A DNA stretch of 26,276 nucleotides from Opitutales bacterium (GTDB lineage Bacteria > Verrucomicrobiota > Verrucomicrobiia > Opitutales > UBA2987): positions 1-26,276 of the forward strand of contig JAJFLT010000100.1 of the NCBI GenBank assembly GCA_021772555.1, written 5' to 3'. Shown here piece by piece: positions 2,514 through 24,993 of this stretch. A program made the position numbers and the translations under genes. Position 1 is the stretch's first letter. Each line of letters starts with the position of its first letter. The notes under the pieces are model-generated. The model was given only the letters and a program-made list of their open reading frames with translations. It ran no database searches and was not told the DNA's origin.

Positions 2514-5509
2514 CAGGAACTTTTGGTATATGGAAGCAGTGGATGGGTTATTTCCCATTTAACGCGCAGCGTCTCGATATCAAGGGGCAGGGTGGCCAGA
2601 GGGTATTCCGCCGATACCCCATATTTTGCCCGCACAGGTCCTGTCATCCCCAAGACTCCGGATTGCTGCAGGTGGGAAAGTCCGGCCCAAATCCGTCGCA
2701 ATTCGGTTGCCTGCAACTCAGACCAGGACAAAGGATTCGTCAATGCATCCGACACCTTCAAGACGGACAGGCTGACATCTTCCGCACCCATGGAATGAAG
2801 AGCCAAGGCATATAGGGCAACCTGCAGGCCTTTTCCTTTTTGCAAATCTTTAATGTGCAAAGGACGATCCTTTCCCGTCTTGAAATCAATCACCCAAAGT
2901 GGAGTGTACCCGGCCCAGGCTCGTTCGGATTGAGGCGATTCAAGGGGTTTTTGAGACAACAACAGGTCTATCCGGCCGGAAACGGGTAGGGTGTTGCGCT
3001 CCGTCAGAGGCAGGTCCATTTCTGTTGCGGGGGGCAAATCCCATTCGCTACGGGCAAAGGCCCAGCCTTCCAGTGCATCCAGAGAATCAGCCAAACCGGA
3101 AGCGATGCGCAAAGCCTGGGACCAACCCGATATCCACCAGTCAGGCAGGGTCCTGCCTGACTTTTTATAAGCTTCACGGACAGCCTTCTGCAATCGCCTG
3201 GCCTTTTCATCCACCTGTCGGGCCCAACCTCCCTCTAACGGAAAAGACGTGAACATGCTATCGTCATCCGCTGCGTCTTGATCGAGCCCGAGCCATTCAT
3301 GCACCCAGATTCCGATCGTCATGGGCCAGTTAACCGGTTCGCTGAAATCCGCGTCTTTGCGAATTCCGGTAACTGTATTCATCCACACCGAGGCGGGCCG
3401 CGCCAAAACCGTTTCCCAATTTTTGCAGGACAACGCCACCCCGCCGGGCGGAGGTTCGCGGTAGGCGAATTCAAATTCCCCAAACGGCTTTTTCTTATTC
3501 CGCCGGGCCGTGTGAGCGCGCAGGAAACGGTCGCGGTCTTTGGTATCGATTGAGGCTCTCCCGGTTTGTGGAAACGGGGGGATCCATTGCCGGGTTGCCG
3601 CGGCCAGCTCCGCCATAGTTTTATCATCCAAATGCCCTCCTGTATCCGCTCGGTAGAGTTTTAAAAAAAGCTCGCTGGGGGCGGCGGCGCGGCTGAAATC
3701 ATCCTCCGCCTTGAGGGAAGCAGTCGCTGCCAAACGGCATCCGGTCGATTCCAGCAAGCCCGCGAAAGCGTCCCGCGAGAGCTGACGCAAATCGCCCGCA
3801 CCAAGCAAAAGGCTACGATCCTTTTTAACCGCTAAATGCCCCTCCCCCTGAGAACCCTGAGCCAGACTGTTCCGGTTCAGAGCCTGCAAAAGCTCATCCG
3901 GTAAAAAAGGGGAAAGGGGAGGCTCGGGAGGCCAAAGCCCGTGGTTCAGCCCGCCCAGTATGAGATGGGAGAAATCCTGCCCCTCAGCCTGCTCGTAGGT
4001 TAACAGGTGCAACGGTGAAAGGGATTGCCGCCCGCAGGAGTAGCGGGTTCGCCCCGGGGTCCTCAGGATGTCGCCCAACCAACGCAGGAAAACGGACCGT
4101 TTGACCGGCAGGACGAGTGCTTTTTTCAGTGGTTCGGCGCGACTGGCCAGAATTTCCAGTTCGGATTTCCAGCCTAATCTGTCGAGCGGCCCCAGAGATG
4201 CCTGTAAAAATCCGGCAAAGGAATCCAGGGGCGGGAGCGCGGGCCATTGATTCAATACCGAAAAACCATTTCCCTCCGGCCGGTGTTTACCCAACCACGA
4301 ACGAATAACACCCAGATGACCCGTCAGCAAAACCCTGGTCGCCTCTTTTAAATCTCTTTCAGAAGATCGAAAAAGTTTTGCCGAACCCAGGTCGAGATTT
4401 CGCCTTGAACGCAGGAACATGTGAAACGAGGGCAAACTCTGGTCCCTTTGAAAATCCAGCCAACGATTCAGCAAACCTTGCCGCGTTGATTGCACGGGGT
4501 AGTGTCCGATATTGTCTAGGAAAGGGATTTTCAGCCGGGCCAACCGCGAGGCCACCTCTCTTCCCAAAATCGACCCCGAAGGCGTTAAAATGCCCAGGCG
4601 CGCACACTTTGGATCTTCTAAATAAGTGCAGGCGCAAGCCGTTATTACCTCTGCCTCCTGACGAACATGGTCCGCCAAATAGAAATCCCCGGAGGCATTT
4701 TCGGGTGCTCCCGGCAAATCCAGGGAATAATTCAGGCATAACCCGGAAAAGGGGAAATCAACAACCGGTTCTGCCGCCGGAACCGTTTCCGCCTCCCCAA
4801 AAAATTCCTCCCACGCACCAGTCCAGATTCTTTCCGGTTGACTATCTCGGGCCAGAGGCAAGCAGACCAAGGTTTCGGAGGCATGGGCGCATCCCGCCCG
4901 AAGGAGGGCCAGCCACTCCCAGTGCCGGGCTGAAAACCCGACTATGAGCATGGAATCTATCAGTTTCCCAGTCGTTGCTCTTTCTCGACACAGACGCCAA
5001 TCCGCCTCCTGGGAAGTTTGCAGACCGGTATGGGCAAGAAGTTTTTCATACCTGGAAGCCACTTCAGCCCATAATTCACCATCCAGTGACTTGCTCTCGT
5101 GTCCGGCTGCTTTAAGCATGTCCAATGTGCGCACGAATTCATCCGGTTGCTCCTCGAGTATCTCCGAAAAGACCTCTTCCTCCTCCCCATCAGCGGCTGC
5201 AACCGCCATAAAAAAGTGTAAGTCTTCACGTAATGCGAGGCGTTTGTCACCGCCTGACCGGGAAGTCTTGAGCAGGAATTCGCGGAGATTTCCCAGGCTC
5301 CAGAAATGAATCGAAAAAAGGGGCAAGCCCGCATTTAAAACCTTCTGTTTGAGGAACGCGCCGTAGGCCTGGTTGGGAACGATCACTACGGTGGGACGCC
5401 CCGAGGACATGGATTCGGTTGATACTTTTATCCGAAACCACGGCTCCAGAAGTTGTTGCCAGCAATCCTCGAATCCCGCTGCCTGGCAAAGGCGAATACT
5501 GGAGGACAT
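2513..5509 (-). CDS. addB: AddB-like subunit with C-terminal PD-(D/E)XK nuclease domain, 998 aa
   Basis: C-terminal SGRIDLL...VIDFKTG...LQVALYALAL RecB-family nuclease motifs; translationally coupled directly upstream of the UvrD helicase (addB-addA order). Confidence 0.78.
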   Translation of the reverse strand: MSSSIRLCQAAGFEDCWQQLLEPWFRIKVSTESMSSGRPTVVIVPNQAYGAFLKQKVLNAGLPLFSIHFWSLGNLREFLLKTSRSGGDKRLALREDLHFFMAVAAADGEEEEVFSEILEEQPDEFVRTLDMLKAAGHESKSLDGELWAEVASRYEKLLAHTGLQTSQEADWRLCRERATTGKLIDSMLIVGFSARHWEWLALLRAGCAHASETLVCLPLARDSQPERIWTGAWEEFFGEAETVPAAEPVVDFPFSGLCLNYSLDLPGAPENASGDFYLADHVRQEAEVITACACTYLEDPKCARLGILTPSGSILGREVASRLARLKIPFLDNIGHYPVQSTRQGLLNRWLDFQRDQSLPSFHMFLRSRRNLDLGSAKLFRSSERDLKEATRVLLTGHLGVIRSWLGKHRPEGNGFSVLNQWPALPPLDSFAGFLQASLGPLDRLGWKSELEILASRAEPLKKALVLPVKRSVFLRWLGDILRTPGRTRYSCGRQSLSPLHLLTYEQAEGQDFSHLILGGLNHGLWPPEPPLSPFLPDELLQALNRNSLAQGSQGEGHLAVKKDRSLLLGAGDLRQLSRDAFAGLLESTGCRLAATASLKAEDDFSRAAAPSELFLKLYRADTGGHLDDKTMAELAAATRQWIPPFPQTGRASIDTKDRDRFLRAHTARRNKKKPFGEFEFAYREPPPGGVALSCKNWETVLARPASVWMNTVTGIRKDADFSEPVNWPMTIGIWVHEWLGLDQDAADDDSMFTSFPLEGGWARQVDEKARRLQKAVREAYKKSGRTLPDWWISGWSQALRIASGLADSLDALEGWAFARSEWDLPPATEMDLPLTERNTLPVSGRIDLLLSQKPLESPQSERAWAGYTPLWVIDFKTGKDRPLHIKDLQKGKGLQVALYALALHSMGAEDVSLSVLKVSDALTNPLSWSELQATELRRIWAGLSHLQQSGVLGMTGPVRAKYGVSAEYPLATLPLDIETLRVKWEITHPLLPYTKSS

Positions 5510-5534
5510 TTTAATTTATTAAACCTACCCGGCC

Positions 5535-5957
5535 TCAGTCCTCGCCTTCATCAATCCAGTGAATGGCGACGGATCTTTCGATATCGGGGTGAATGCTGTA
5601 ATTAACCGGACAGGTTTCCGCCGCGTGAAGCAACGCCGCTTTGACTTCATCGGTATGATTGCCGGAAATCCAGAATTCAACCGGCAGCCCCACGATGCGC
5701 CGGGGTGTATCGGAAGACATGATTTTTGTTACTTTAAAGCGCGCTCCGGCCATATCCACGCCCAGTTGCCGGGCTCGAATGCCCATTATAGTGGTCATGC
5801 AGGTTCCCAGCGCAGTGGCGCAAAGATCCGTGGGGGAAAAAGATTCACCTTTGCCTTGATTGTCCACCGGCGCATCTGTGCTCAGTTGGGCGCCGGAAGG
5901 CTCGTGTCGGGCGGAACAACGCAAATCACCCTCATAAACCGCAGTCATCGTAACCAT
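5535..5957 (-). CDS. OsmC/Ohr family protein
   Basis: TDAPVDNQGKGESFSPTDLCATALGTC and the second Cys in AAETCPV. Likely start is ATG 5957 (MVTMTAVY); the ORF track extends to a TTG at 5975. Confidence 0.88.
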   Translation of the reverse strand: MVTMTAVYEGDLRCSARHEPSGAQLSTDAPVDNQGKGESFSPTDLCATALGTCMTTIMGIRARQLGVDMAGARFKVTKIMSSDTPRRIVGLPVEFWISGNHTDEVKAALLHAAETCPVNYSIHPDIERSVAIHWIDEGED

Positions 5958-6123
5958 GCCAAGAGTCAAACTCAAGTCACCGAGGCCTGCAACTCAAAAT
6001 GAATTCTGAACATAAGAAGCAACCTGCTTGCATATTGCAGGCACGGTATTATATTGCCTCAGAGAGGGAAACCATACTAAAGGAACAGACTTAGAAGAAA
6101 TCGATTTAATGGAGATAAAATTG

Positions 6124-6393
6124 ATGATTAAAAATAGCCACACTTTCTTTATTTCGTTGATATTCACAGGATTACCGACCATTCTGGAGGCCCATTCAGG
6201 CCATGGGATGGATGGCACTGCTCACAGTATAACACATTATCTAACAGAGCCTTTTCACATTGCAGTGGGTGCCAGCCTGGCCGCATTGGTTGCCGCGGGT
6301 TTTTATATTTCCAGGAAAATCAGGCAGGGGCAACAGGGTCGGGTCTTGAAAATTGAGACTCGTCACTCTTCGGATTTTGAGGCTTATTCGTAA
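6124..6393 (+). CDS. Small His-rich single-pass membrane protein of unknown function (89 aa)
   Basis: GGAGA RBS at 6111-6115 before ATG 6124; signal-like N-terminus, then AHSGHGMDGTAHSITHYLTEPFH, a hydrophobic helix and a basic tail. Confidence 0.6.
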   Translation: MIKNSHTFFISLIFTGLPTILEAHSGHGMDGTAHSITHYLTEPFHIAVGASLAALVAAGFYISRKIRQGQQGRVLKIETRHSSDFEAYS

Positions 6394-6451
6394 AGAATTA
6401 TTCCTTTTCCGCATTGTTCCTATTGCGAAGAATCCGATTGGTGACAAGGCG

Positions 6452-7186
6452 CTAATCCCGATGTGCGGAATAGAGTAATTCCAGCGTGTGCCGCAAAATT
6501 TGGACGAGGTTTCGAATTTCCTCTTCCAAAATTGTTCCGGTCAAGGCGATGGCATAGAGTTTGTCTTCCTGGGCAACGGCCAGGGAACATCGCTCTTCCG
6601 ATTCTGCTGAGGAATCGCTCAAAAAAGCGTAGCCTTGGCTTTTGATGGCCCGCAACTCCTTCACCAAAGCGGGCAAGCCGCAGGGGAACCCGGGAACCGG
6701 GCCGCCAATAAAAATGGCCTCCACTTTCTCCTGCGAATAATTGGAGAGCAAAACCAGGCCTATGGCGGAGCGAGTGGCCGCCCGTAAATCCATACGACCC
6801 ATGGCCCAAGAGGTGGGTCTATCCGGTTCGCTGCCATAAAAACATGAAACAGCCCCTTCCCAGCACATTCCGAGTTCAACTTTACAAGAGGGTACTTGCC
6901 GCTGCAAATCCTGAAGGGGTTCCGGCATTGTGCGCCATATGGGCGCATTGCAGAGGCTTTGCGAGGCCAGGACTGGTAATGCAGGACCGGCCTGAAATTT
7001 GCGGTCTCCTCCCTGATGAACCAACCCCAAATGGGCAAGAGTTTTGAGAAGGCGATGCGTCCTTGTCGGTTCGATCTTGAGCAAGCGGGAAACTTCAATC
7101 GAGCGAAGGGGGTTTCCTGACAGGGAGAGAGCCTTTAAACAACGAACGCCCTCAATCAGACTTTGGTTGGGTTGTGCGGGAAGCAT
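6452..7186 (-). CDS. IclR family transcriptional regulator
   Basis: N-terminal HTH NQSLIEGVRCL...RTHRLLKTLAHLGLV; C-terminal effector-domain motifs ATRSAIGLVLL and IKSQGYA. Confidence 0.85.
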   Translation of the reverse strand: MLPAQPNQSLIEGVRCLKALSLSGNPLRSIEVSRLLKIEPTRTHRLLKTLAHLGLVHQGGDRKFQAGPALPVLASQSLCNAPIWRTMPEPLQDLQRQVPSCKVELGMCWEGAVSCFYGSEPDRPTSWAMGRMDLRAATRSAIGLVLLSNYSQEKVEAIFIGGPVPGFPCGLPALVKELRAIKSQGYAFLSDSSAESEERCSLAVAQEDKLYAIALTGTILEEEIRNLVQILRHTLELLYSAHRD

Positions 7187-15965: not shown

Positions 15966-17093
15966 ATGAAATTTAAAATCAATCGCGACCATTTTTCCAG
16001 TGGCTTGTCCAGAGTTCTCAATGTTGTCGGCACCCGAGCCACAATGCCCATTCTCAGCAATGTGCTTATTGACGCCGAAGACGGTTTCATATCCCTGACC
16101 ACGACCAATCTCGACCTCGGCATCCGCTGCAAAATTAAAGCCGAAGTCCTCGAACCCGGCGGCATTACTTTGCCCGTGCGTAAATTGGCCACCATTATCC
16201 GTGAATTACCCAATCTGGATGTGGAGTTGGAAACCTCCTCCAACCAGCAGGCGAAAATAACCTCAGGCGGTTCCCTTTTCCGGGTCATGGGAATCGAAAG
16301 GGAAGAATTTCCCTCTTTGCCCAGCTTCAGTGACGATCATGTTTACAATCTATCCCAATCGGATCTGGCCGAAATGCTGCGGTGTGTTTCCTACGCTCAA
16401 AGCAGCGATGAAACCCGCTACATCATGAACGGGATTTATTTCAATTTCGAGGAGGGCACCATGACCCTGGCTGCCACCGATGGCCGGCGACTGGCCGTCA
16501 TTAAAAAGGAATTGGAAGCAACCGAAGACAAGGGAGGCAGTCTCATTCTGCCAGCCAAGACAGTGGCCGAACTGGAACGTATCCTGGGCGGTGGTGAATC
16601 CGTTAAAATTGCCTTCAACGACCGGCAGGCGGCCTTCGAACTGAGTAACGGCGAAGATGAAAAATCTTCCGGCCTGATCGGCAGCACCTATCTGGTTTCC
16701 AAAGTGGTCGAGGGAAAATACCCCAACTACCGGCAGGTGATACCGCAGGAAACCGAGCAGCGTATCAAAATCGAGCGCGAGCTCCTCCTCGACTGCGTCA
16801 AGCGGGCCGCTCTCGTGACGACCGACCAGAGCAGCTCCATCAAAATGAAAATCCATAACAACCTGATGGAAATCACCGCCTCCAGCCCCGAGTACGGTCA
16901 ATCCCACGAATCCCTCGCCGTGCAGTTTGATGGGCCCGAAATATCCGTCGCCTTCAACCCCGGATTCCTCGCAGATCCGCTCAAGGCGGTCACCAAGGAC
17001 GAGATTATCTTCGAGTTTAAAGACGAACTCAGCCCCGGTGTAGTCCGCACCACGGAAAACTTTCTCTGCGTAATCATGCCCCTCAGGCTCTAA
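15966..17093 (+). CDS. dnaN: DNA polymerase III beta sliding clamp
   Basis: [60 protein letters not shown]-like VAFNPGFL, C-terminal VIMPLRL. Confidence 0.97.
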
Positions 17094-17218: not shown

Positions 17219-18109
17219 ATGAATGATAATTCACATTACCTGTTGCAACAAATACTGCTATTCTCCCTCGTGGTTTGCTTCCTTTTTTACCAGGACCGGC
17301 TTTCCACCTCGCCCATTGTGGCCATTTTCAACCGTTGGGTGAGGTGGATTACCATATCACTGGGGCTCGCTTATATCGTCCACACTTCGGGTGTCAGCGG
17401 GCGACCATTCTGGATATTGGCGGTTTGTGGTTTCCTCGGCTGGTTTCTCCTCGAAACCATTTACAATTGGCTAGCCATCGCGGCCCTGAGCAAAAGCCCG
17501 GTTCCCCTTTTTCCCAAATTTGAAGTCAATGAATCGGGTGATGAATGGCCGGCTCAAAAACACTTTATAGGCCTGCGCGAATGGCTCCGAGAAGAGGGTT
17601 TTCAACGCATCGTGGCACTGCGGGCGGAGATCGTTGAGTCGATAGTTCTGCGTCTTTCGGTCTATCAAAACGCCGATAAAACCATACGATTGCAGATCAT
17701 GTTTTTGCCCCACCGCAGCGGGAATGTCTCTGTTTGCCACATCCTCAGCTCGCAGGGACGGGAGGGCTACCGCCTCATCACCGACAACTATTTTTTGCCT
17801 TTCGGCGGGTTTTATCCCGAAGCCTGGGTGGTCGATCGGAGCCCCTGGACGCGCTCGGTCAGTAAATTACTACACCGGCACAAACAACGGGTGCAATCCT
17901 CCGGCGAGAAAATTCTTCCCTGGGACGAGGACCCGCTGATCGAGATGAACGACCAGCAACGCATCCTCGAGCGCATCAACACAGACCTCGGCTTTCTCTT
18001 CCCCCGGCATTTACAGGAAAACTACGGCAAAATCACCTCGGAGGGCCGCTATCGCTTCTGGAAAGAAATCTGGCTCCTCAACTACTTCGGCATCACTTTC
18101 GTCAGGTAA
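17219..18109 (+). CDS. Hypothetical membrane-anchored protein (about 3 N-terminal TM helices plus a soluble domain); its 3' end is the repeated sequence
   Basis: 296-aa ORF 125 nt downstream of dnaN on the same strand; hydrophobic N-terminal third; ends ...GKITSEGRYRFWKEIWLLNYFGITFVR*. Confidence 0.8.
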   Translation: MNDNSHYLLQQILLFSLVVCFLFYQDRLSTSPIVAIFNRWVRWITISLGLAYIVHTSGVSGRPFWILAVCGFLGWFLLETIYNWLAIAALSKSPVPLFPKFEVNESGDEWPAQKHFIGLREWLREEGFQRIVALRAEIVESIVLRLSVYQNADKTIRLQIMFLPHRSGNVSVCHILSSQGREGYRLITDNYFLPFGGFYPEAWVVDRSPWTRSVSKLLHRHKQRVQSSGEKILPWDEDPLIEMNDQQRILERINTDLGFLFPRHLQENYGKITSEGRYRFWKEIWLLNYFGITFVR

Positions 18110-18111
18110 GG
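17990..18111 (+). repeat. Direct repeat copy 1 (intact 3' end of the gene downstream of dnaN)
   Basis: Core GGCAAAATCACCTCGGAGGGCCGCTATCGCTTCTGGAAAGAAATCTGGCTCCTCAACTACTTCGGCATCACTTTCGTCAGGTAA (18026-18109). Confidence 0.95.
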
Positions 18112-18228
18112 AGAGAGAGTGTCCTGTATTGGTTTGAGCAGTCTTAATTTTCCAAGCTCGAAAGAACCTCAAGCAGCGTTGTATCGCCATTGTTGCAACT
18201 GAATAGAACCACGGGACAGGCTCTAATT

Positions 18229-19536
18229 ATGAACGATCAAGAGTATTATGATTACGCCAAAACACTGATCCCCGGTGGGACACAATTACTGAGCAAGCGT
18301 CCTGAGTTGCAGGCACCGGGGTTATGGCCGGCGTATTTCACCGAGGCGAAGGGCTGTGTTGTGACCGATACCGATTGCAGGCATTATCGTGATTTTTCTT
18401 TTATGGGCCTGGGATCATGCGTTTTGGGTTATGGAGTCCCCGCCATCGACCAGGCGGTTGTCAGCCGAATCAGGCAAGGTGCGATGTCTACCCTCAATCC
18501 ACCTGAAGAGGTTGCCCTTGCAGAGACATTACTGGAAATTCATCCATGGGCCGACAAAGTGAGGTTTGCCCGCACAGGAGGTGAAATCCTCGCTGTGGCT
18601 GTGCGTATTGCGCGTGCTCATACCCGAAGGAGCACGATTGCAGTTTGTGGCTATCATGGATGGCATGACTGGTATCTGGCGGCAAACCTTTCTGCTGCCA
18701 ACGCCCTGGATGAGCACCTGCTGCCGGGCTTGTCTCCATTGGGTGTGCCGACGGAACTTCGAGGGACCTGCCAGACTTTTCGTTTCAATGATTTCGATGC
18801 GTTTGACGAATTGATCAGCCGGCACGGCAATGATCTGGCTGCAATCGTGATGGAACCCTTGCGATACGAACCGCCCGAATCGGGTTTTCTGGAAAGGGTA
18901 AAGGAGGCAGCCGAAAAATATGGACTCGTTTTGATTTTTGACGAGATCACCTCGGGATGGAGGAACCGCCTTGGAGGAGTGCACCTGGATTTTGGAATCA
19001 CCCCGGACATAGCGGTATTTGCCAAAGCCATGTCCAACGGCTACCCCATGGCGGCGGCAATTGGCACGGCGGAAACCATGGATATTGCGGGATCGTCATT
19101 CATCTCAAGCACTTACTGGTCAGAGGCAATCGGACCGACCGCGGCACTTGCCACCATCGCAGAGTTTAAACGTAATCAGCCGTGGAAAGGCCTGAAAAAA
19201 ACCGGTCGGAAAGTCGTAGAAATCTGGAGAAGCGCTTCATCCAGGCATTCGTTGCCCATAGAGTGCCACAGTTCGGATGCACTGTCGCATTTTTCTCTCA
19301 AAGACTGCGATGCGAACGTTGCCAAGACGATTTTTGCCCAGCAGATGTTGGAAAAGAATTTTTTGGCCACTACTTCCTTTTATGCTTCGACCGCCCATGC
19401 GGAAGCCGATATCGATGATTATGCGGAGGCCTGCGATCAAAGTTTTCAATATATCAAAAATGCATTGTCTAAAGGTGACCTGAAAAACGCCCTCACGGGA
19501 CCCGAAGCCCATATCGGTTTTACGCGGTTGAATTAA
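18229..19536 (+). CDS. Class III PLP-dependent aminotransferase (glutamate-1-semialdehyde aminomutase-like)
   Basis: RFARTGGE, CGYHGWHDW, AIVMEP, LIFDEITSGWR, PLP lysine in FAKAMSNGYP, SSTYWSE. Likely start ATG 18229 (MNDQEYY). Confidence 0.9.
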   Translation: MNDQEYYDYAKTLIPGGTQLLSKRPELQAPGLWPAYFTEAKGCVVTDTDCRHYRDFSFMGLGSCVLGYGVPAIDQAVVSRIRQGAMSTLNPPEEVALAETLLEIHPWADKVRFARTGGEILAVAVRIARAHTRRSTIAVCGYHGWHDWYLAANLSAANALDEHLLPGLSPLGVPTELRGTCQTFRFNDFDAFDELISRHGNDLAAIVMEPLRYEPPESGFLERVKEAAEKYGLVLIFDEITSGWRNRLGGVHLDFGITPDIAVFAKAMSNGYPMAAAIGTAETMDIAGSSFISSTYWSEAIGPTAALATIAEFKRNQPWKGLKKTGRKVVEIWRSASSRHSLPIECHSSDALSHFSLKDCDANVAKTIFAQQMLEKNFLATTSFYASTAHAEADIDDYAEACDQSFQYIKNALSKGDLKNALTGPEAHIGFTRLN

Positions 19537-19540
19537 CCTC

Positions 19541-19621
19541 ATGAATATAGACTACAGCGAGCACGACCAGCGTATCTGGGAGGAGGAACTGGAAACGTTT
19601 GTGCCTCAACGCATCTATTAA
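19541..19621 (+). pseudogene. N-terminal fragment of a probable amidohydrolase-family gene
   Basis: ATG 4 nt after the aminotransferase stop: MNIDYSEHDQRIWEEELETFVPQRIY*. It stops where a D-A-H-x-H metal motif would be expected (TAT TAA TGC G versus TAT GAT GCG). Family call is from recall of similar N-termini. Confidence 0.55.
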
Positions 19622-19720
19622 TGCGATCCGCGAATTTAAGATAAATTCTAGTTATTAGCTACGGCGTAAGCTCTATTTTCGATCTATCTTACCAATATCG
19701 GCTTGATGCTGTTTGCGTTT

Positions 19721-19826
19721 CGCCATTTGAACGGAGACTACCCCAAAATCACCTCCCAAGGCCGCTAACGCTTCTGGAAAGAAATCTGGCTCCTTCAACT
19801 ACTTCGGCATCACCTTCGTGCACTAG
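19721..19826 (+). repeat. Direct repeat copy 2 (decayed 3' end of the 17219-18109 gene)
   Basis: RHLNGDYPKITSQGR*RFWKEIWL(+1 T)LNYFGITFVH*; 72/84 identical to copy 1 over the core plus a 1-nt insertion; nonsense TAA at 19766-19768. Confidence 0.93.
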
Positions 19827-19827
19827 C

Positions 19828-20793
19828 CTACTGTTGTTCGAGGATATCATCGGTGTTCTCTGAATCGGGATTGGTGTAGGAGCCGCGGTATTTTTCACCG
19901 GTTGAGATCGGTTCGGGGTCCATGGCTTCCTGCGGGATCCTGGCGATGGCTTCGAGGACAATCGGAACGGCGTGTTTGGCGATTCGCTGCACGCTGTTCT
20001 GCATATCGACAAAGCTAAACGGGCGCACCCCGACCGCCGGATTGGCGATGGAGCAGATGGCGGCAAAACGGATGCCGAGTTGTCGGGCGTAGGTTGTGGC
20101 GGTTGCTATATTTTCACTACAGAGGTCGCCACCGAGGATGCGCATTGCACGGACCTCCGCAGCGGTCTCGAACCGTTCCGGGTTGTGCTGCACAAAGACG
20201 CCATGTTCGTAGAGCTTGCCGGTGTAGCCTTCCTGGACTTTGCGGGCCTCCGAGATAAGAAGTTTCCGCAAAGACGGACTATAAGGCTGGTAGTAGTTTT
20301 GAAAAACTCCCGGTCGCTCGATTCCGGAATAATCCAGAATGTTGTGGGGGCGGGTATTTTCCATTTCCATAAAATCGTCCACGATAATGAGGTCGTCATA
20401 ATCGTAGTCGGTTCGAATGCCTCCCGAGCTGGCTCCACCAATTACATGGGTTATGCCGAGGTCGTAAAGAGCGACCCAGCAACGGATGTGCCCTATGGCT
20501 TCGCTTTCACCTTCTTTTCGTGCCTCATAGCCATACATGCGGATGTAATAAAATGGCACCCCCTTGTAACGCATTCTGTAGATCGGAGGACTCGTTCCAA
20601 CCCTGGTCTCAATTGTAAAGACCCCTTCCTCCTTGACCAGGCCTTTTCCAAAAGTTTTTTGGTCGCCGAAAGTTGTTCCTCCCACCACGGCAATGAAAAC
20701 CTTTTGTTCGCCACTGGACTCTTCAGTATCAGCGTAGAGTTGGATAGAAAACAAAATCGAGACGAACAGTAAAAGAACTTTCCAAGCATTCAT
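19828..20793 (-). CDS. MTAP/purine nucleoside phosphorylase-family protein with predicted signal peptide
   Basis: IAVVGGT, YYIRMYG, LYDLGITHVIGGASSGGIR, DLIIVDDFME, PYSPSLR, RFETAAEVRAMRILGGDL, ARQLGIRFAAICSIAN align with MTAP motifs. Start is ATG 20793 (MNAWKVLLLFVSILFSIQLYA). Confidence 0.78.
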   Translation of the reverse strand: MNAWKVLLLFVSILFSIQLYADTEESSGEQKVFIAVVGGTTFGDQKTFGKGLVKEEGVFTIETRVGTSPPIYRMRYKGVPFYYIRMYGYEARKEGESEAIGHIRCWVALYDLGITHVIGGASSGGIRTDYDYDDLIIVDDFMEMENTRPHNILDYSGIERPGVFQNYYQPYSPSLRKLLISEARKVQEGYTGKLYEHGVFVQHNPERFETAAEVRAMRILGGDLCSENIATATTYARQLGIRFAAICSIANPAVGVRPFSFVDMQNSVQRIAKHAVPIVLEAIARIPQEAMDPEPISTGEKYRGSYTNPDSENTDDILEQQ

Positions 20794-20844
20794 GTGGACG
20801 AATGATGCAATCAATCCCCATAAAAGCGAGCCTGAATCACGATA

Positions 20845-20966
20845 GGCCTCTTCGACCCTCGCCACCTGCAGGAGGATCACGGCAAAATCACCTCCCAAGG
20901 CCGCTACCGCTTTTGGAAAGAAATCTAGCTCCTCAACTACTTCGGCACCACCTTTGTGCGGTAAGG
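20845..20966 (+). repeat. Direct repeat copy 3 (decayed 3' end of the 17219-18109 gene)
   Basis: GLFDPRHLQEDHGKITSQGRYRFWKEI*LLNYFGTTFVR*; 73/84 identical to copy 1 over the core; nonsense TAG at 20926-20928; ends GGTAAGG like copy 1. Confidence 0.95.
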
Positions 20967-21183: not shown

Positions 21184-22392
21184 TCATTTTCGTGATCTGG
21201 ACCCTTTGGTGGTTTCTCGCCATGGCTTGTTGCTTTTGTATAATTCTAAGCGTTTTTGATAACTTTCTATGGACTTATCTCCCTCCTCAAGTTTTTCAAT
21301 AGCTTTTATTTCGATTTCAATTGCTTCATCAAATCTTCCCGCTTCCGCAAAAGCTGCTGCAAGGGTATCAAGGATTGCGGAGGAATTCTCTTTCATTAGC
21401 GCTTGTTCGGCATATTCGATTGCTTTCTCTCCATCACGAATCGAATCATCAGGACATGTGGCAAGTAACCATGCTATACTATTTAACCCATTAACGATAT
21501 CTTTTTCAGCTACTTTGAAATACCATTTATATGCTTTTTGATAATCTTGGGGCATCCCTTCGCCATTTTGATACATCGAACCAATAGCATTTTGGGCTAG
21601 TAGGTGGCCCTGTTCAGCTGCCTTGAGAACCCACTTTTTGGTTTCCCCATAATCCTGAGGCACTCCATTTCCTTCGTGATACAAAACCGAGAGATTGTAT
21701 TGAGCCTTGGCGTGTCCTTTTTCGGCCGCCTTAATATACCATTTTCTCGCCTTTACGAAATCCTGAGCCACTCCATTCCCCACATGGTACATCCACCCAA
21801 GATTATATTCGGCATCTGGATAATTTTGTTCCGCTGCCTTACGATACCACTTTATAGTCTCGGAGAAATCCTGAGCCACACCATTTCCTTCGCTATACAA
21901 AACCCCAAGGTTGTATTGTGATACGGCATGCCTCTGTATTGCTGCCTTGCGATACCATTTTACAGCCTTGGAGTTATTCTGAGCCACTCCTTGTCCTTTG
22001 CCATACTTAACCCCAAGGTTGTATTGTGATAGTGCATACCCTTGTTTTGCTGATTTGCGGTACCATTTTACAGCCATGGAGAAATCCTGATCCGCGCCAT
22101 GTCCTTTGTCATACATCATTCCTACAGCATATTTTGATTTGGCAAAACCCTGTTGGGCTGATTTCTTAAACCACTTTAGAGCCTCGGAATAATTCTGGGA
22201 AATTACATAACCTTTGTAATACAACAATCCAAGGTTATATTGAGCATCAGGGTCTCCTAGTTTGGCCTGCTCCTTTAACACTGAAAGCTCTTTTGGTTCA
22301 GCAGCCTTTATTGAAGCCAATGCCACAAAAAAGAATATGATTGAAAACCAAAAGCTTAGAGTTCGGGGTAGCTGCGTTGATAAGGTAGTCAT
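21184..22392 (-). CDS. Secreted Sel1-like repeat protein (7 SLRs) with a TPR-like C-terminal cap
   Basis: 36-aa repeats AQYNLG..Y..G.GV.QD...A.KWY.KAA.QG; C-terminus LNSIAWLLATCPDDSIRDG...LDTLAAAFAEAGRFDEA; signal peptide; visibly lower GC (spot counts 27-48%). Confidence 0.93.
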   Translation of the reverse strand: MTTLSTQLPRTLSFWFSIIFFFVALASIKAAEPKELSVLKEQAKLGDPDAQYNLGLLYYKGYVISQNYSEALKWFKKSAQQGFAKSKYAVGMMYDKGHGADQDFSMAVKWYRKSAKQGYALSQYNLGVKYGKGQGVAQNNSKAVKWYRKAAIQRHAVSQYNLGVLYSEGNGVAQDFSETIKWYRKAAEQNYPDAEYNLGWMYHVGNGVAQDFVKARKWYIKAAEKGHAKAQYNLSVLYHEGNGVPQDYGETKKWVLKAAEQGHLLAQNAIGSMYQNGEGMPQDYQKAYKWYFKVAEKDIVNGLNSIAWLLATCPDDSIRDGEKAIEYAEQALMKENSSAILDTLAAAFAEAGRFDEAIEIEIKAIEKLEEGDKSIESYQKRLELYKSNKPWRETTKGSRSRK

Positions 22393-22560: not shown

Positions 22561-23577
22561 TCAGCCGCCGATGTAGGACATTTCTACTTTGTGGGGGTGG
22601 AGGTGCTTTTTGAGGATTTCGGTGCGTAGCTCGGAGTAGCGGTCGTGGCGGTTTTCCCAGATGGCGCGCAGGGTCTCGCGGATGTCGTCGTCGGTCTCGC
22701 CGTTGCGGAGGACTTCGCGCAGGTCCCATCCTTCGTTGGCGAAGAGGCAGGTGTAGAGTTTGCCGTCGGCGGATAGGCGGGATCTCATGCAATTGGCGCA
22801 AAACGGCTGCGTGACTGAGGCGATGACGCCGATTTCCACCTCCGTTCCGCTGTAACGGTAGCGCCGTGCCACCTCTCCCGGGTAGTTCGGGTTGAGCGGT
22901 TCGAGGGGAAACTCCGATTGGATCAATTCGACGATCCGGCGGGAGGGAAAGACCTGCTCCATTTTCCAACCGTTATGGTTGCCCACGTCCATGAATTCAA
23001 TAAACCGCAAGGTATGGCCGTTTTGTTTAAAAAAACGAGACATGGGCAAAATTTCGCTTTCGTTGACGCCCTTTTGCACCACCATGTTGATCTTGATGCG
23101 CAGACCGGCAGCAGCGGCGGCCTCGATGCCCTTTAATACAGCTGCCACCTGCACATTGCGCCCGTTCATCTTCTGGAAGCAGTCGTTGTCGAGGGCGTCC
23201 AGGCTGACCGTTATGCGCTTCATCCCGGCGTTTTTAAGACGCTCCGCAAATCGCGGCAGGAGCACACCGTTGGTGGTCAGCGCGAGGTCGTCGATACGCG
23301 GAATAGCGACCAGCATCTTGATCAATTGATCGATATCCTTGCGCAGCAGCGGCTCCCCGCCCGTGAGGCGGATTTTATGCACACCGAGGTCGGCCGCGAT
23401 CCGGGTCAAACGAGTAATTTCGTCGAAATTTAGAAGCTCGTCCCGTTTTAAAAAAGCGTAGTGATTGCCGAAAACCTCCGCCGGCATACAGTAGGGGCAG
23501 CGGAAGTTGCACTGGTCGATAACCGATATGCGCAAGTCCTTGAGCGGCCTCTTGAGAGTGTCTATTGGAAAATCCAT
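22561..23577 (-). CDS. moaA: GTP 3',8-cyclase MoaA (radical SAM)
   Basis: LRISVIDQCNFRCPYCMP (CxxxCxxC), RLTGGEPLLR, FCANC.R.RLSADGKLYTCLF, C-terminal MSYIGG. Confidence 0.97.
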   Translation of the reverse strand: MDFPIDTLKRPLKDLRISVIDQCNFRCPYCMPAEVFGNHYAFLKRDELLNFDEITRLTRIAADLGVHKIRLTGGEPLLRKDIDQLIKMLVAIPRIDDLALTTNGVLLPRFAERLKNAGMKRITVSLDALDNDCFQKMNGRNVQVAAVLKGIEAAAAAGLRIKINMVVQKGVNESEILPMSRFFKQNGHTLRFIEFMDVGNHNGWKMEQVFPSRRIVELIQSEFPLEPLNPNYPGEVARRYRYSGTEVEIGVIASVTQPFCANCMRSRLSADGKLYTCLFANEGWDLREVLRNGETDDDIRETLRAIWENRHDRYSELRTEILKKHLHPHKVEMSYIGG

Positions 23578-23598: not shown

Positions 23599-23690
23599 TA
23601 GAACCTATCTCAAATTCGATGGATTCGTGCGGCACGGTGCCACAGTGGCGCTACAAACACCATTCATCTGCGATTTTGAGTTAGGTTCTA
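23599..23690. mobile_element. 92-bp imperfect inverted repeat: MITE-like element (TA flanks) or structured leader
   Basis: TAGAACCTATCTCAAATTCG (23599-23618) pairs with CGATTTTGAGTTAGGTTCTA (23671-23690) at 18/20 positions, followed by a 3-nt bulge and 6 further pairs. Confidence 0.55.
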
Positions 23691-23781
23691 ATAATTTGCC
23701 TCTAAATGACGGCATTGTCCAATGCTAATGAAGGGCCAATAATCGTTGCCCTCCGCGCATTCGATGTCTTGTATTTTTGGC

Positions 23782-24993
23782 ATGCCGTTAATCGCTGTCA
23801 ACGAGGCCGCCCGCATCGTCGAGGAAGCCACCGCCGTACTTTCCACGGAGGAAGTATCGCTGGTGGAGGCCATTGGACGGGCACTGCGCCAGACGGTGCA
23901 AGCCGACCGTGATGTGCCACCCTACGATCGGGTTATGATGGACGGGATTGCTTTTAACCATCGGGATTGGGAAAATGACGTTCGCCAATATTCCATTGTC
24001 GGCACGCAGGCGGCGGGAGCGCCCCCGGAAATCCTCACCGGTTCGGGAAACTGTTTCGAGATTATGACAGGCTCGGAATTATCGAACGGCTGCGATTGCG
24101 TGGTCCCCTATGAGGAAGTGGAAATCAACGAAGGGAAAGCGCAGATTGTCGATGGATTTGTGCCGCAACCGGGTCGATTCGTCCACAAAACGGGTTCCGA
24201 CTATCCCGCCGGGGCGACACTGTTGCAGCCGGGCTACCGGTTGACCTCGCGGCAAATCGCGATCGCCGCGGCCAGCGGGTGCACTCATTTGAGAGTGACC
24301 CGGCTTCCCCGCATCAGCCTCGTCTCGACCGGCGATGAGTTGGTGGAAATCGACCTGCCGGTGGAGCGGCATCAAATCCGCCCCTCGAATGCCTATTCGC
24401 TGCAAGCGGGGTTGGCGGCATTGGGTATTTCCACGGTTAAACGTAGCCATCTCAATGATCGTCCCGAGGAAATTGAGAAGAAATTGGTCAGCCTTTTGGA
24501 AGATTCCGATGTCCTCATCTTGAGCGGAGGCGTCTCCAAGGGCCGCTACGATTACGTTCCAGAAATTTTGGAGAAACTGGGTGTCAAAAAGCTATTTCAT
24601 GGCGTTACCCAGCGACCCGGCAAACCGTTTTGGTTTGGACGGCAGGATGACGGTCCTTCCGTTTTTGCCCTGCCCGGCAACCCCCTTTCGACTCTGGTTT
24701 GTTTCCATCGGTTTGTCGTACCCTCTCTGGAGAAAATGCTCGGATTGCCGACTCCGCCGACGGTTTGGGCTTCGCTGGCCGAACCATTTGACTTTGAGCC
24801 GCCCCAGACATTTTTCCTGCCGGTAGCTGCCGAAAGCCAACCGGATGGGCTCCTTTCGGCCACTCCCCGATCGGTCAGCAATTCCGGGGATTACGCCTCC
24901 ATAGTCTCAACCTCGGGCTTTGTGGAGCTGCCCGGTGAGGATTTGAGCGAATTTCCCACCGGGTATTGCGCAAAATATTTTTCCTGGATTTAG
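23782..24993 (+). CDS. moeA: Molybdopterin molybdenumtransferase MoeA
   Basis: PPYDRVMMDGIA, IMTGSELSNGCDCVVPYE, STGDEL, SGGVSKGRYDYVP, QRPGKP, LPGNPLS. Likely start ATG 23782. Confidence 0.95.
   Translation: MPLIAVNEAARIVEEATAVLSTEEVSLVEAIGRALRQTVQADRDVPPYDRVMMDGIAFNHRDWENDVRQYSIVGTQAAGAPPEILTGSGNCFEIMTGSELSNGCDCVVPYEEVEINEGKAQIVDGFVPQPGRFVHKTGSDYPAGATLLQPGYRLTSRQIAIAAASGCTHLRVTRLPRISLVSTGDELVEIDLPVERHQIRPSNAYSLQAGLAALGISTVKRSHLNDRPEEIEKKLVSLLEDSDVLILSGGVSKGRYDYVPEILEKLGVKKLFHGVTQRPGKPFWFGRQDDGPSVFALPGNPLSTLVCFHRFVVPSLEKMLGLPTPPTVWASLAEPFDFEPPQTFFLPVAAESQPDGLLSATPRSVSNSGDYASIVSTSGFVELPGEDLSEFPTGYCAKYFSWI

Follow-up and report, generated by a model that had tools for sequence, protein, structure and literature searches.

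How the 3' end of one protein-coding gene comes to stand three times in a row, with unrelated genes set between the copies, is the question raised by a 26,276-nt stretch of DNA (hereafter, the window) from an uncultured bacterium of the Opitutales, positions 1 to 26,276 of the contig JAJFLT010000100.1 in the assembly GCA_021772555.1. The source is a metagenome-assembled genome (MAG), designated G000, of 3.4 Mb in 471 contigs and 82% completeness, in which the window contig was covered at about 5x. The repeated gene, at 17219-18109 on the plus strand, is the one after dnaN and is referred to by the working name geneX. The explanation favoured here, with a rough probability of 0.75-0.8, is a serial insertion into the 3' end of geneX of DNA that brought its own copy of the gene's tail, the displaced orphan tails being the scars left in an additive hotspot.

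GeneX encodes a predicted membrane protein of 296 aa and unknown function, hydrophobic in the N-terminal half of its translation, for which neither Pfam nor NCBIfam matches were obtained and whose neighbours in the Atlas are hypothetical proteins of Verrucomicrobiota. The gene is single-copy and conserved in Opitutales, with the full protein detected in 33 of the 41 genomes searched and the tail peptide in 224 of 401. Its functional tail, i.e., the last ~35-40 codons with the stop (copy 1, 17990-18111, plus strand), is followed on the same strand by the orphan tails at 19721-19826 (copy 2) and 20845-20966 (copy 3). The repeat search within the window delimited the direct repeats at 18005-18078, 19721-19794 (84%) and 20860-20933 (81%), along with a 122-nt direct pair of 80% identity at 17990-18111 and 20845-20966. 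In the alignments of ~104 nt the identities are 86/105 for copies 1 and 2, 85/104 for copies 1 and 3, and 86/105 for copies 2 and 3, near the core values of 72/84 and 73/84 given by the first-pass annotation, which had described three direct copies, with only the first intact. This description was confirmed: the repeated segment is the 3' ~105-130 nt of geneX, and copy 1 alone is intact, ending the 296-aa open reading frame (ORF). The nonsense or frameshift lesions ascribed to the other two copies were borne out as regards the frameshift (+1 T) in copy 2 and the TAG in copy 3, while the nonsense codon of copy 2, TAA at 19768, is doubtful, since a Logan contig assembled independently from the same run has C at this position, giving TAC; a polymorphism would account for the difference, as would a base error of the MAG at low coverage, and the frameshift is not affected. 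Throughout G000 the tail matched only at the window locus (E 4e-26 and 1.6e-25, the next best E being 0.36), by which the reading as a dispersed repeat was ruled out, and neither copies beside a recombinase nor extra copies elsewhere in G000 and its four congeners, G001-G004, were found.

Every copy ends on the right at the geneX stop codon plus 0-2 nt. On the left, the nucleotide alignments break off sharply, at the equivalent of ~18005 in copy 2 and of ~17990-18001 in copy 3, and a weak homology at the protein level extends to ~19694 (residue 256) and ~20812 (residue 247), respectively, the latter limit being 19 nt from the start codon of the adjacent gene of the PNP/MTAP superfamily (hereafter PNP). 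The window alignment revealed neither homology of the orphans into the geneX body nor downstream flanks common to them. The longest blocks shared by all copies are of 12-13 nt, and the same blocks are conserved in every functional allele. The copies are old and short, with three-way distances of 8/11/4, and in copy 3 only 5 of 102 nt are private changes, so that the orphan tails resemble ordinary alleles of the genus. The differences between copies 1 and 3 fall on third codon positions in 12 of 19 cases (p ~0.18 by a binomial estimate, not significant), an excess that constraint on the functional copy 1 would produce in any case. The sharp edges and the lack of any geneX body upstream of the orphans leave a slim chance to a purely local history, in which a tandem duplication of geneX, whole or in its 3' part, was followed by the loss of most of the extra copies, overwritten by unrelated genes, with no incoming tail. 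Such a history is compatible with the direct orientation and the decay of the distal copies, but the cargo is of foreign origin as regards the locus, and the aminotransferase also as regards the genus, the same design recurs at a second gene, and the comparison of G002 with G000, both detailed below, points to a tail-bounded insertion without an intermediate full-length duplicate.

An assembly artefact, namely a chimeric join of strain variants, might be suspected in a MAG of 471 contigs and ~5x depth, with a related species in the same study, and had been named in the first-pass annotation as a possible refutation. It is very unlikely, since independent Logan contigs of the source run bridge dnaN, geneX, copy 1 and the aminotransferase gene in one case, and the aminotransferase gene, copy 2 and PNP in the other, with 19768 as the sole difference and an even depth of ~5x. 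Besides, the arrangement of tail, PNP and tail 3 is present in the separate assemblies of G002 and G004, and the copies are mutually diverged and degenerate and are not collapsed alleles.

What the site looked like before any insertion is indicated by the relatives, including the same-genus genomes G001-G004 and those of sister genera of the family, G005, G007 and G008. In the three latter and in many other Opitutales the usual order is CDP-OH transferase gene, dnaN, geneX, convergent moaA and moeA, with a stop-to-stop gap between geneX and moaA of 5-274 bp; therefore, the 4.4 kb separating the two genes in the window is inserted. Within the genus, five different sequences begin right after the geneX stop codon, and the genus-wide similarity stops in every case within a few bases of it. 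Thus, in G002 (as seen in its MAG contig and in a Logan contig of greater length from the same study) geneX is followed directly by the PNP orthologue and then by a complete orphan tail 3 with lesions of its own, TAG and TGA. In G004 the intact geneX is followed by an AAA_21/DUF4276 gene pair and DDE transposases, and ~120 kb away on the same contig PNP is still bordered by 44 nt of tail 2 on one side and, with its upstream flank, by ~20 nt from the left end of tail 3 on the other, moaA-moeA coming next; this separation indicates a rearrangement with its breakpoint in the orphan tail 2. In G003 a gene for an IS630-like transposase, as judged from the translated flank, starts ~20 nt after the geneX stop, PNP being located elsewhere; in a related ENA contig (L089) an S9 peptidase gene comes after geneX; and in G001 there is AT-rich DNA after geneX, a Sel1 gene lying beside moaA on a separate contig.

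Close relatives therefore carry different cargo at the same site between conserved flanks, and partial copies of the target stand between the cassettes in G000, G002 and G004. The cargo-variable hotspot on the geneX 3' end with orphan tails as insertion scars, as proposed in the first-pass annotation, is upheld by the cargo of G002 and G004 and by the ancestral abutment of geneX and moaA; identical cargo and copy number in all relatives, which would have spoken against it, were not seen, both the cargo and the number of tails being variable. Outside the genus, no orphan tail was found among the 224 gene-bearing Opitutales genomes, and among the JGI metagenome contigs no relative was nearer than ~53%. 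Three candidates were rejected in the course of these comparisons: extra tail matches in G202 and G004 (E about 0.004) lie inside other ORFs and are due to chance, a double match in G223 represents two full-length genes on two contigs with no orphan tail, and the flanking of PNP in G003 by the tail of another gene comes down to a 15-nt match at chance level. As separate observations on G004, geneX lies at ~11.5 kb and the PNP-moaA-moeA block at ~133 kb of its contig C21, in the same orientation, and the end of a histidine-kinase-like gene abuts the tail-2 remnant. In strains of the G004 type (L031, that is, G004 C21 9447-11368, and L086-L088) the AAA_21 (AbiEii/OLD-like ATPase) and DUF4276 genes after geneX are defence-like and flanked by several DDE transposases, and an insertion sequence is also present between the CDP-OH transferase gene and dnaN.

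The relative age of the insertions can be read from the same comparisons. The window segment 19721-20977 is collinear with G002, copy 2 being positionally orthologous to the functional tail of that genome, so that G000 carries an extra 1716 nt, with the replacement tail first and the aminotransferase unit next. The PNP unit with both flanking tails is old, orthologous in three species and anterior to the split of G000, G002 and G004, and is not recently mobile. The aminotransferase unit was seen only in G000. PNP is thus older than this unit, which lies nearer to geneX, and such is the order expected if new units enter at geneX and push the older ones outward; the oldest insert is perhaps the Sel1 gene at the distal end. 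According to the scheme proposed, at least two separate insertions would have struck geneX within its last 35-50 codons. Each would have brought a tail copy of its own, by which geneX would stay whole, while the previous tail would be pushed downstream to become an untranslated orphan and decay. The likely succession would start with Sel1, with no duplication, continue with the PNP unit, giving rise to tail 3, before the split of the three species, and finish with the aminotransferase operon, giving rise to tail 2.

The cargo of the first unit (18112-19720) opens with a spacer from the geneX stop to the aminotransferase start (18112-18228, plus strand), which has no homology to the post-geneX sequence in relatives, and consists of the gene of a class-III aminotransferase (AT3; 435 aa, 18229-19536, plus strand, Pfam Aminotran_3) and a remnant of its operon partner, Amidohydro_2 (19541-19660, plus strand), recognised by tblastn against the partner genes of the loci L090-L092 and their C-termini. 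An aminotransferase plus a truncated gene had been reported here, of which the first is correct; the second begins four nucleotides after AT3 and has its first 26 codons (19541-19618) fused to the C-terminal NAIREF motif (19620-19637). Since both the start and the NAIREF end are kept, the gene has suffered an internal deletion of ~0.9 kb and is not a cut end of the cargo. The best homologues of AT3, 74-65% identical in amino acids, are all located in AT3-Amidohydro_2 operons with the same spacing, so that the unit was once a complete two-gene operon; the closest of them belong to catabolic clusters. No close homologue occurs in G000-G004, and AT3 is not a paralogue of any G000 gene; it was horizontally acquired and is foreign to both the locus and the genus. 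The loss of most of its partner has probably left AT3 functionally orphaned.

The second unit (19827-20844) is a single minus-strand gene, PNP (321 aa, 19828-20793, Pfam PNP_UDP_1), which fills the whole interval between copies 2 and 3. Its N-terminus reads like a signal peptide and the protein is predicted to be secreted; the NCBIfam models of MTAP and PNP score on it far under their cut-offs, and orthologues are present in G002 (92.5% amino acid identity), G004 and G003. The stop of this MTAP-like gene, as noticed originally, is 1 nt from the stop of copy 2, and its start lies 19-50 nt from the left edge of copy 3, so that room for an integrase is lacking. After copy 3 comes the Sel1-repeat gene (21184-22392, minus strand, seven Pfam Sel1 matches), the GC content of which, 0.40-0.45, agrees with the low value claimed for it. 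No orphan tail lies beyond it, and neither the Sel1-moaA interval nor the G001 locus yielded a fourth tail scoring above the range of shuffled sequences. Within the gene, the GC content of which is far below that of the surroundings, 108-nt periodic repeats of 60-71% identity extend over 21503-22098, and a shorter Sel1 homologue adjoins moaA in G001.

Whether a dedicated recombinase put these units in place is the next question. The absence of an integrase from view was confirmed, with no integrase, resolvase or transposase encoded in the 26-kb window. Furthermore, about 35 geneX loci, taken from genomes, ENA, Logan and JGI and including G001-G008 and 25 further loci, had no integrase beside the gene, and no copy of the tail was detected in IMG/VR, PLSDB and a phage collection. 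An integron-type site is contradicted by the folding of the tail, which as single-stranded DNA was no better than that of shuffled sequences (z of +2.25, -0.11 and +1.65 for copies 1, 2 and 3, and +1.89 for the reverse strand), so that the repeat is not an attC-type or other structured site; IntI and attI were sought as well, and the window has no ORF of the Phage_integrase family. A transposon signature is missing, with neither a transposase nor terminal inverted repeats in the window and a duplication of more than 100 nt versus 2-14 bp, and the tail copies show no inverted-repeat structure of the recombinase-binding kind.

These data bear on the accretion of remnants of integrative elements whose tyrosine or serine recombinase targeted the geneX 3' end, the replacement tail being part of attP and the recombination genes being lost, in the manner of cis-mobilizable elements (CIMEs), or the units being mobilised in trans. 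The signature is that of the textbook, a restored target with displaced partial direct copies; the copies end on the right exactly with the stop codon, two events have left edges no more than ~25 nt apart, nine Phage_integrase matches occur elsewhere in the genome, and there are precedents in the CIMEs and tandem accretion (PMC5704250), in icd/icdC (PMC13626634) and in the partial-tRNA arrays of tycheposons. Nevertheless, the two units, their orthologues in G002 and G004 and the ~35 geneX loci yielded no integrase, excisionase or relic of either, the viral, plasmid and phage collections lack the tail, and outside one genus no orphan geneX tails were found. Site-specific accretion is ranked second, as less likely than not but only a little less probable than the homologous insertion treated below, and of the integration hotspot announced by the first-pass annotation the variable site stands, while an active or site-specific integration system is not supported.

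A second locus in the same genome weighs further on this choice. The self-BLAST of the whole MAG, screened for unique 3' tails of long ORFs that are repeated 0.25-15 kb downstream, returned two loci only, geneX and one on the contig C470 (L104, 5043-8152). The latter contains a gene of the sigma-70 family (5043-6125), the last 45 codons of which, with 13 nt of the 3' flank (5989-6135), are repeated at 6936-7082; the duplication is of 147 nt and 94.6% identity, and the orphan is still open. A single gene of a CPT-like (chloramphenicol-phosphotransferase-like) kinase (6223-6798) occupies the ~800 nt between the tails, and beyond the orphan there are a convergent GDPD gene, a dispersed short repeat and the next convergent core gene. 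All four congeners are without this 2-kb segment, the sigma gene being there 29-115 nt from the next gene. The exact look-up of the CPT-like protein, made for an independent contig, gave no record. Both sigma tails have the flank and the bases peculiar to the G000 lineage and differ from all relatives, and the duplicated segment thus derives from the own lineage or very close kin rather than from a distant element. The parallels with geneX comprise a core gene at a tight convergent junction, a duplication of 105-150 nt ending at or just past the stop, a single-gene cargo, a most distal cargo with no tail beyond it, and the lack of mobility genes. A further candidate on C114 (L105), 241 nt from the end of a cyclophilin-domain gene (3' side), was rejected, the segment being a domain present in dozens of paralogues; it lies at 2086-2326 and 4609-4849, the second copy after the gene of a leucine-rich repeat protein, and was seen in dozens of genes per genome in the genus as a common C-terminal domain module.

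For site-specific accretion the sigma-70 case is a difficulty, since in an insert so young (5% divergence) and so short (800 nt with one kinase gene) an integrase is unlikely to have vanished altogether, and a second target specificity would have to be assumed as well. Another possible course is a repair- or replication-based duplicative insertion, in which a break or stalled fork at a convergent junction captures ectopic foreign DNA, and staggered ends or template switching duplicate ~100-150 nt. In its favour, both loci are convergent junctions of core genes with very short spacers, the sigma tails include 13 nt of the 3' flank of their own lineage, like a target duplication, and mobility genes are missing. 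This course is nonetheless rather improbable, for it does not explain an insertion point that lay three times at a depth of 35-50 codons in the gene, a divergence of 5% already separates the sigma tails, and Ku, the end-joining protein, was not found in the MAG (82% complete). To our knowledge, target duplications of 100-150 nt have no precedent in bacteria, which also counts against it.

With two unrelated anchor genes, the same product and no recombinase at either, a generic homology-driven process is the simpler assumption. A Campbell-type single crossover of a circle through short homology, the route used by suicide plasmids, leaves the insert flanked by a direct duplication, is reversible and requires no special recombinase. 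As the mechanism of the insertions, such a crossover of small circles from kin is put forward tentatively, with somewhat less than even chances. The partners would be the chromosomal tail and a small circular DNA of a close relative holding a tail and the adjacent cargo; general recombination (RecA) would suffice, with no dedicated integrase, and a tail-flanked unit might loop out by the reverse crossover and re-enter the genomes of kin. The architecture, the variation of the cargo, the age and orthology of the PNP unit, the lack of recombinase genes and the second locus are what the sequences show; what we infer is the existence of circular intermediates, the mechanism by crossover and the succession of the insertions. 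This mechanism is ranked first because a lost integrase does not fit into the young sigma case, the tails of which are local in origin, and because the orphan tails resemble alleles of the genus and their 100-150 nt suffice for recombination yet are small enough for the duplication to be kept. The geneX duplication measures 105-130 nt and that of the sigma-70 gene 147 nt, lengths at which a RecA crossover can be expected, and the origin of the duplicated segment in the same lineage is seen at the sigma locus, the geneX copies being too old and short to resolve it. Between the two routes suggested originally, mobilisation in trans and Campbell-type recombination of small circles, the second locus favours the Campbell-type over a dedicated recombinase.

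Several points weigh against this scheme. The origin of a small circle with a tail and cargo is unexplained, and a crossover within 105-150 nt of diverged homology is inefficient. A site-specific attP accounts more simply for the close left edges of the two geneX orphans. No donor with AT3 beside geneX was present among the AT3 homologue loci or G000-G004, and no unit circles, empty sites or tail-by-tail deletion products were seen in the Logan contigs, which at ~5x drop rare variants. A recombinase acting in trans could also be involved, given a MAG that is fragmented and 82% complete, with its nine Phage_integrase matches outside the locus. We know of Campbell-type insertion mainly as a laboratory tool and from plasmids and episomes, and not as an established natural route for stacking genes at the 3' ends of core genes.

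Among known systems, the nearest are the tandem accretion arrays with CIMEs of ICESt1/ICESt3-related elements at the fda 3' end in Streptococcus thermophilus (PMC5704250), which likewise have the 3' end of a protein gene as target, successive direct units bounded by copies of the target end, no integration or transfer genes in the units and the newer units near the gene. The CIMEs, however, are decayed derivatives of integrative and conjugative or integrative and mobilizable elements, with short near-identical att repeats and integrase-bearing relatives at the same site, whereas the geneX repeats are of 105-130 nt and 82-86% identity and delimit units of one ORF or operon. The units at geneX are flanked by direct target-derived repeats and the target is restored, as in the CIMEs, but no recombinase, relic of mobility or recombinase-bearing relative was found in the window, the loci of the relatives or the viral and plasmid records. 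In Escherichia coli, e14 and phage 21 leave in icd the C-terminal pseudogene icdC (PMC13626634; Hill et al. 1989 cited there), the insert supplying a slightly diverged 3' end of tens of codons, the displaced C-terminal fragment being distal and the recombination of tails restoring a chimeric gene; e14, in contrast, is a prophage of 15 kb that encodes an integrase of its own and is excised upon SOS induction, and the geneX cargo consists of metabolic genes, 1-1.6 kb in length, with no phage or recombinase genes. The additive flexible genomic islands of Alteromonas (PMC4898812) and the tycheposon-seeded islands of Prochlorococcus (bioRxiv 10.1101/2020.12.28.424599) share with geneX a fixed core-gene hotspot, cassettes differing among close relatives, partial copies of the target and older units pushed inward, but are almost always associated with tRNA or tmRNA genes and element-borne tyrosine recombinases, the anchors here being protein-coding and devoid of a recombinase. 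Integron arrays and clusters of attC sites lacking integron-integrases (CALINs) resemble the locus by small, tight, promoter-poor single-gene units with a recurring ~100-nt repeat and no recombinase inside the units, and differ from it by the attC hairpin, IntI and attI, the geneX repeat being a coding tail and its cargo being of mixed orientation. Hence, hotspots with partial target copies, accretion units without an integrase and replacement 3' ends borne by elements are already known; unusual is the combination of protein-coding anchors, long diverged repeats of the coding type, units of one ORF or operon and the absence of a recombinase at two independent loci of one genome.

The flanks of the array are those of the ancestral order. 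On the left, dnaN (15966-17093, plus strand), encoding the DNA polymerase III beta clamp with the Pfam DNA_pol3_beta domains 1-3, is syntenic in all relatives; on the right, moaA (22561-23577, minus strand; Pfam Radical_SAM and Mob_synth_C), ancestrally convergent with geneX and abutting it, is followed by the conserved moeA (23746-24993, plus strand; Pfam MoeA_N, MoCF_biosynth and MoeA_C). A scan for promoters and terminators gave nothing over the background. The spacer between moaA and moeA contains at 23638-23697 a dispersed repeat of ~55-70 nt, also found at 8053-8124 of L104, of which there are dozens of copies with 85-94% identity in each genome of the genus (G001-G004); it overlaps a 92-bp hairpin marked by the first-pass annotation, and, being dispersed, is likelier to be an element like the repetitive extragenic palindromes or miniature inverted-repeat transposable elements than a locus-specific regulatory RNA.

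Most accessory genes of bacteria reside in hotspots where, for want of a mobility gene, the insertion mechanism is unknown, while here the scars have been kept at two core genes and show that the incoming DNA brought its own copy of the end of the anchor gene. If these were decayed site-specific elements after all, two new protein-coding att targets, geneX and the sigma-70 gene, would be added, and an undiscovered family of elements would be predicted in the genus. If the homology-driven capture is true, it would represent an integrase-free route for stacking single genes in environmental bacteria poor in classical mobile elements, Verrucomicrobiota among them, and would explain the convergent 3' ends of core genes as hotspots. 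A wider and more speculative possibility, held with less assurance than the crossover mechanism itself, is that this lineage of Opitutales possesses a recombinase-independent capture process, in which small circles made of the last 35-50 codons of a core gene and one accessory gene insert through one homologous crossover at tight convergent junctions, and the orphan tails serve as portable homology by which genes may loop out, move among kin and stack. Such a process would amount to a cassette system, with the ends of core genes in place of attC and RecA in place of the integrase, operating at two unrelated core genes of one genome.

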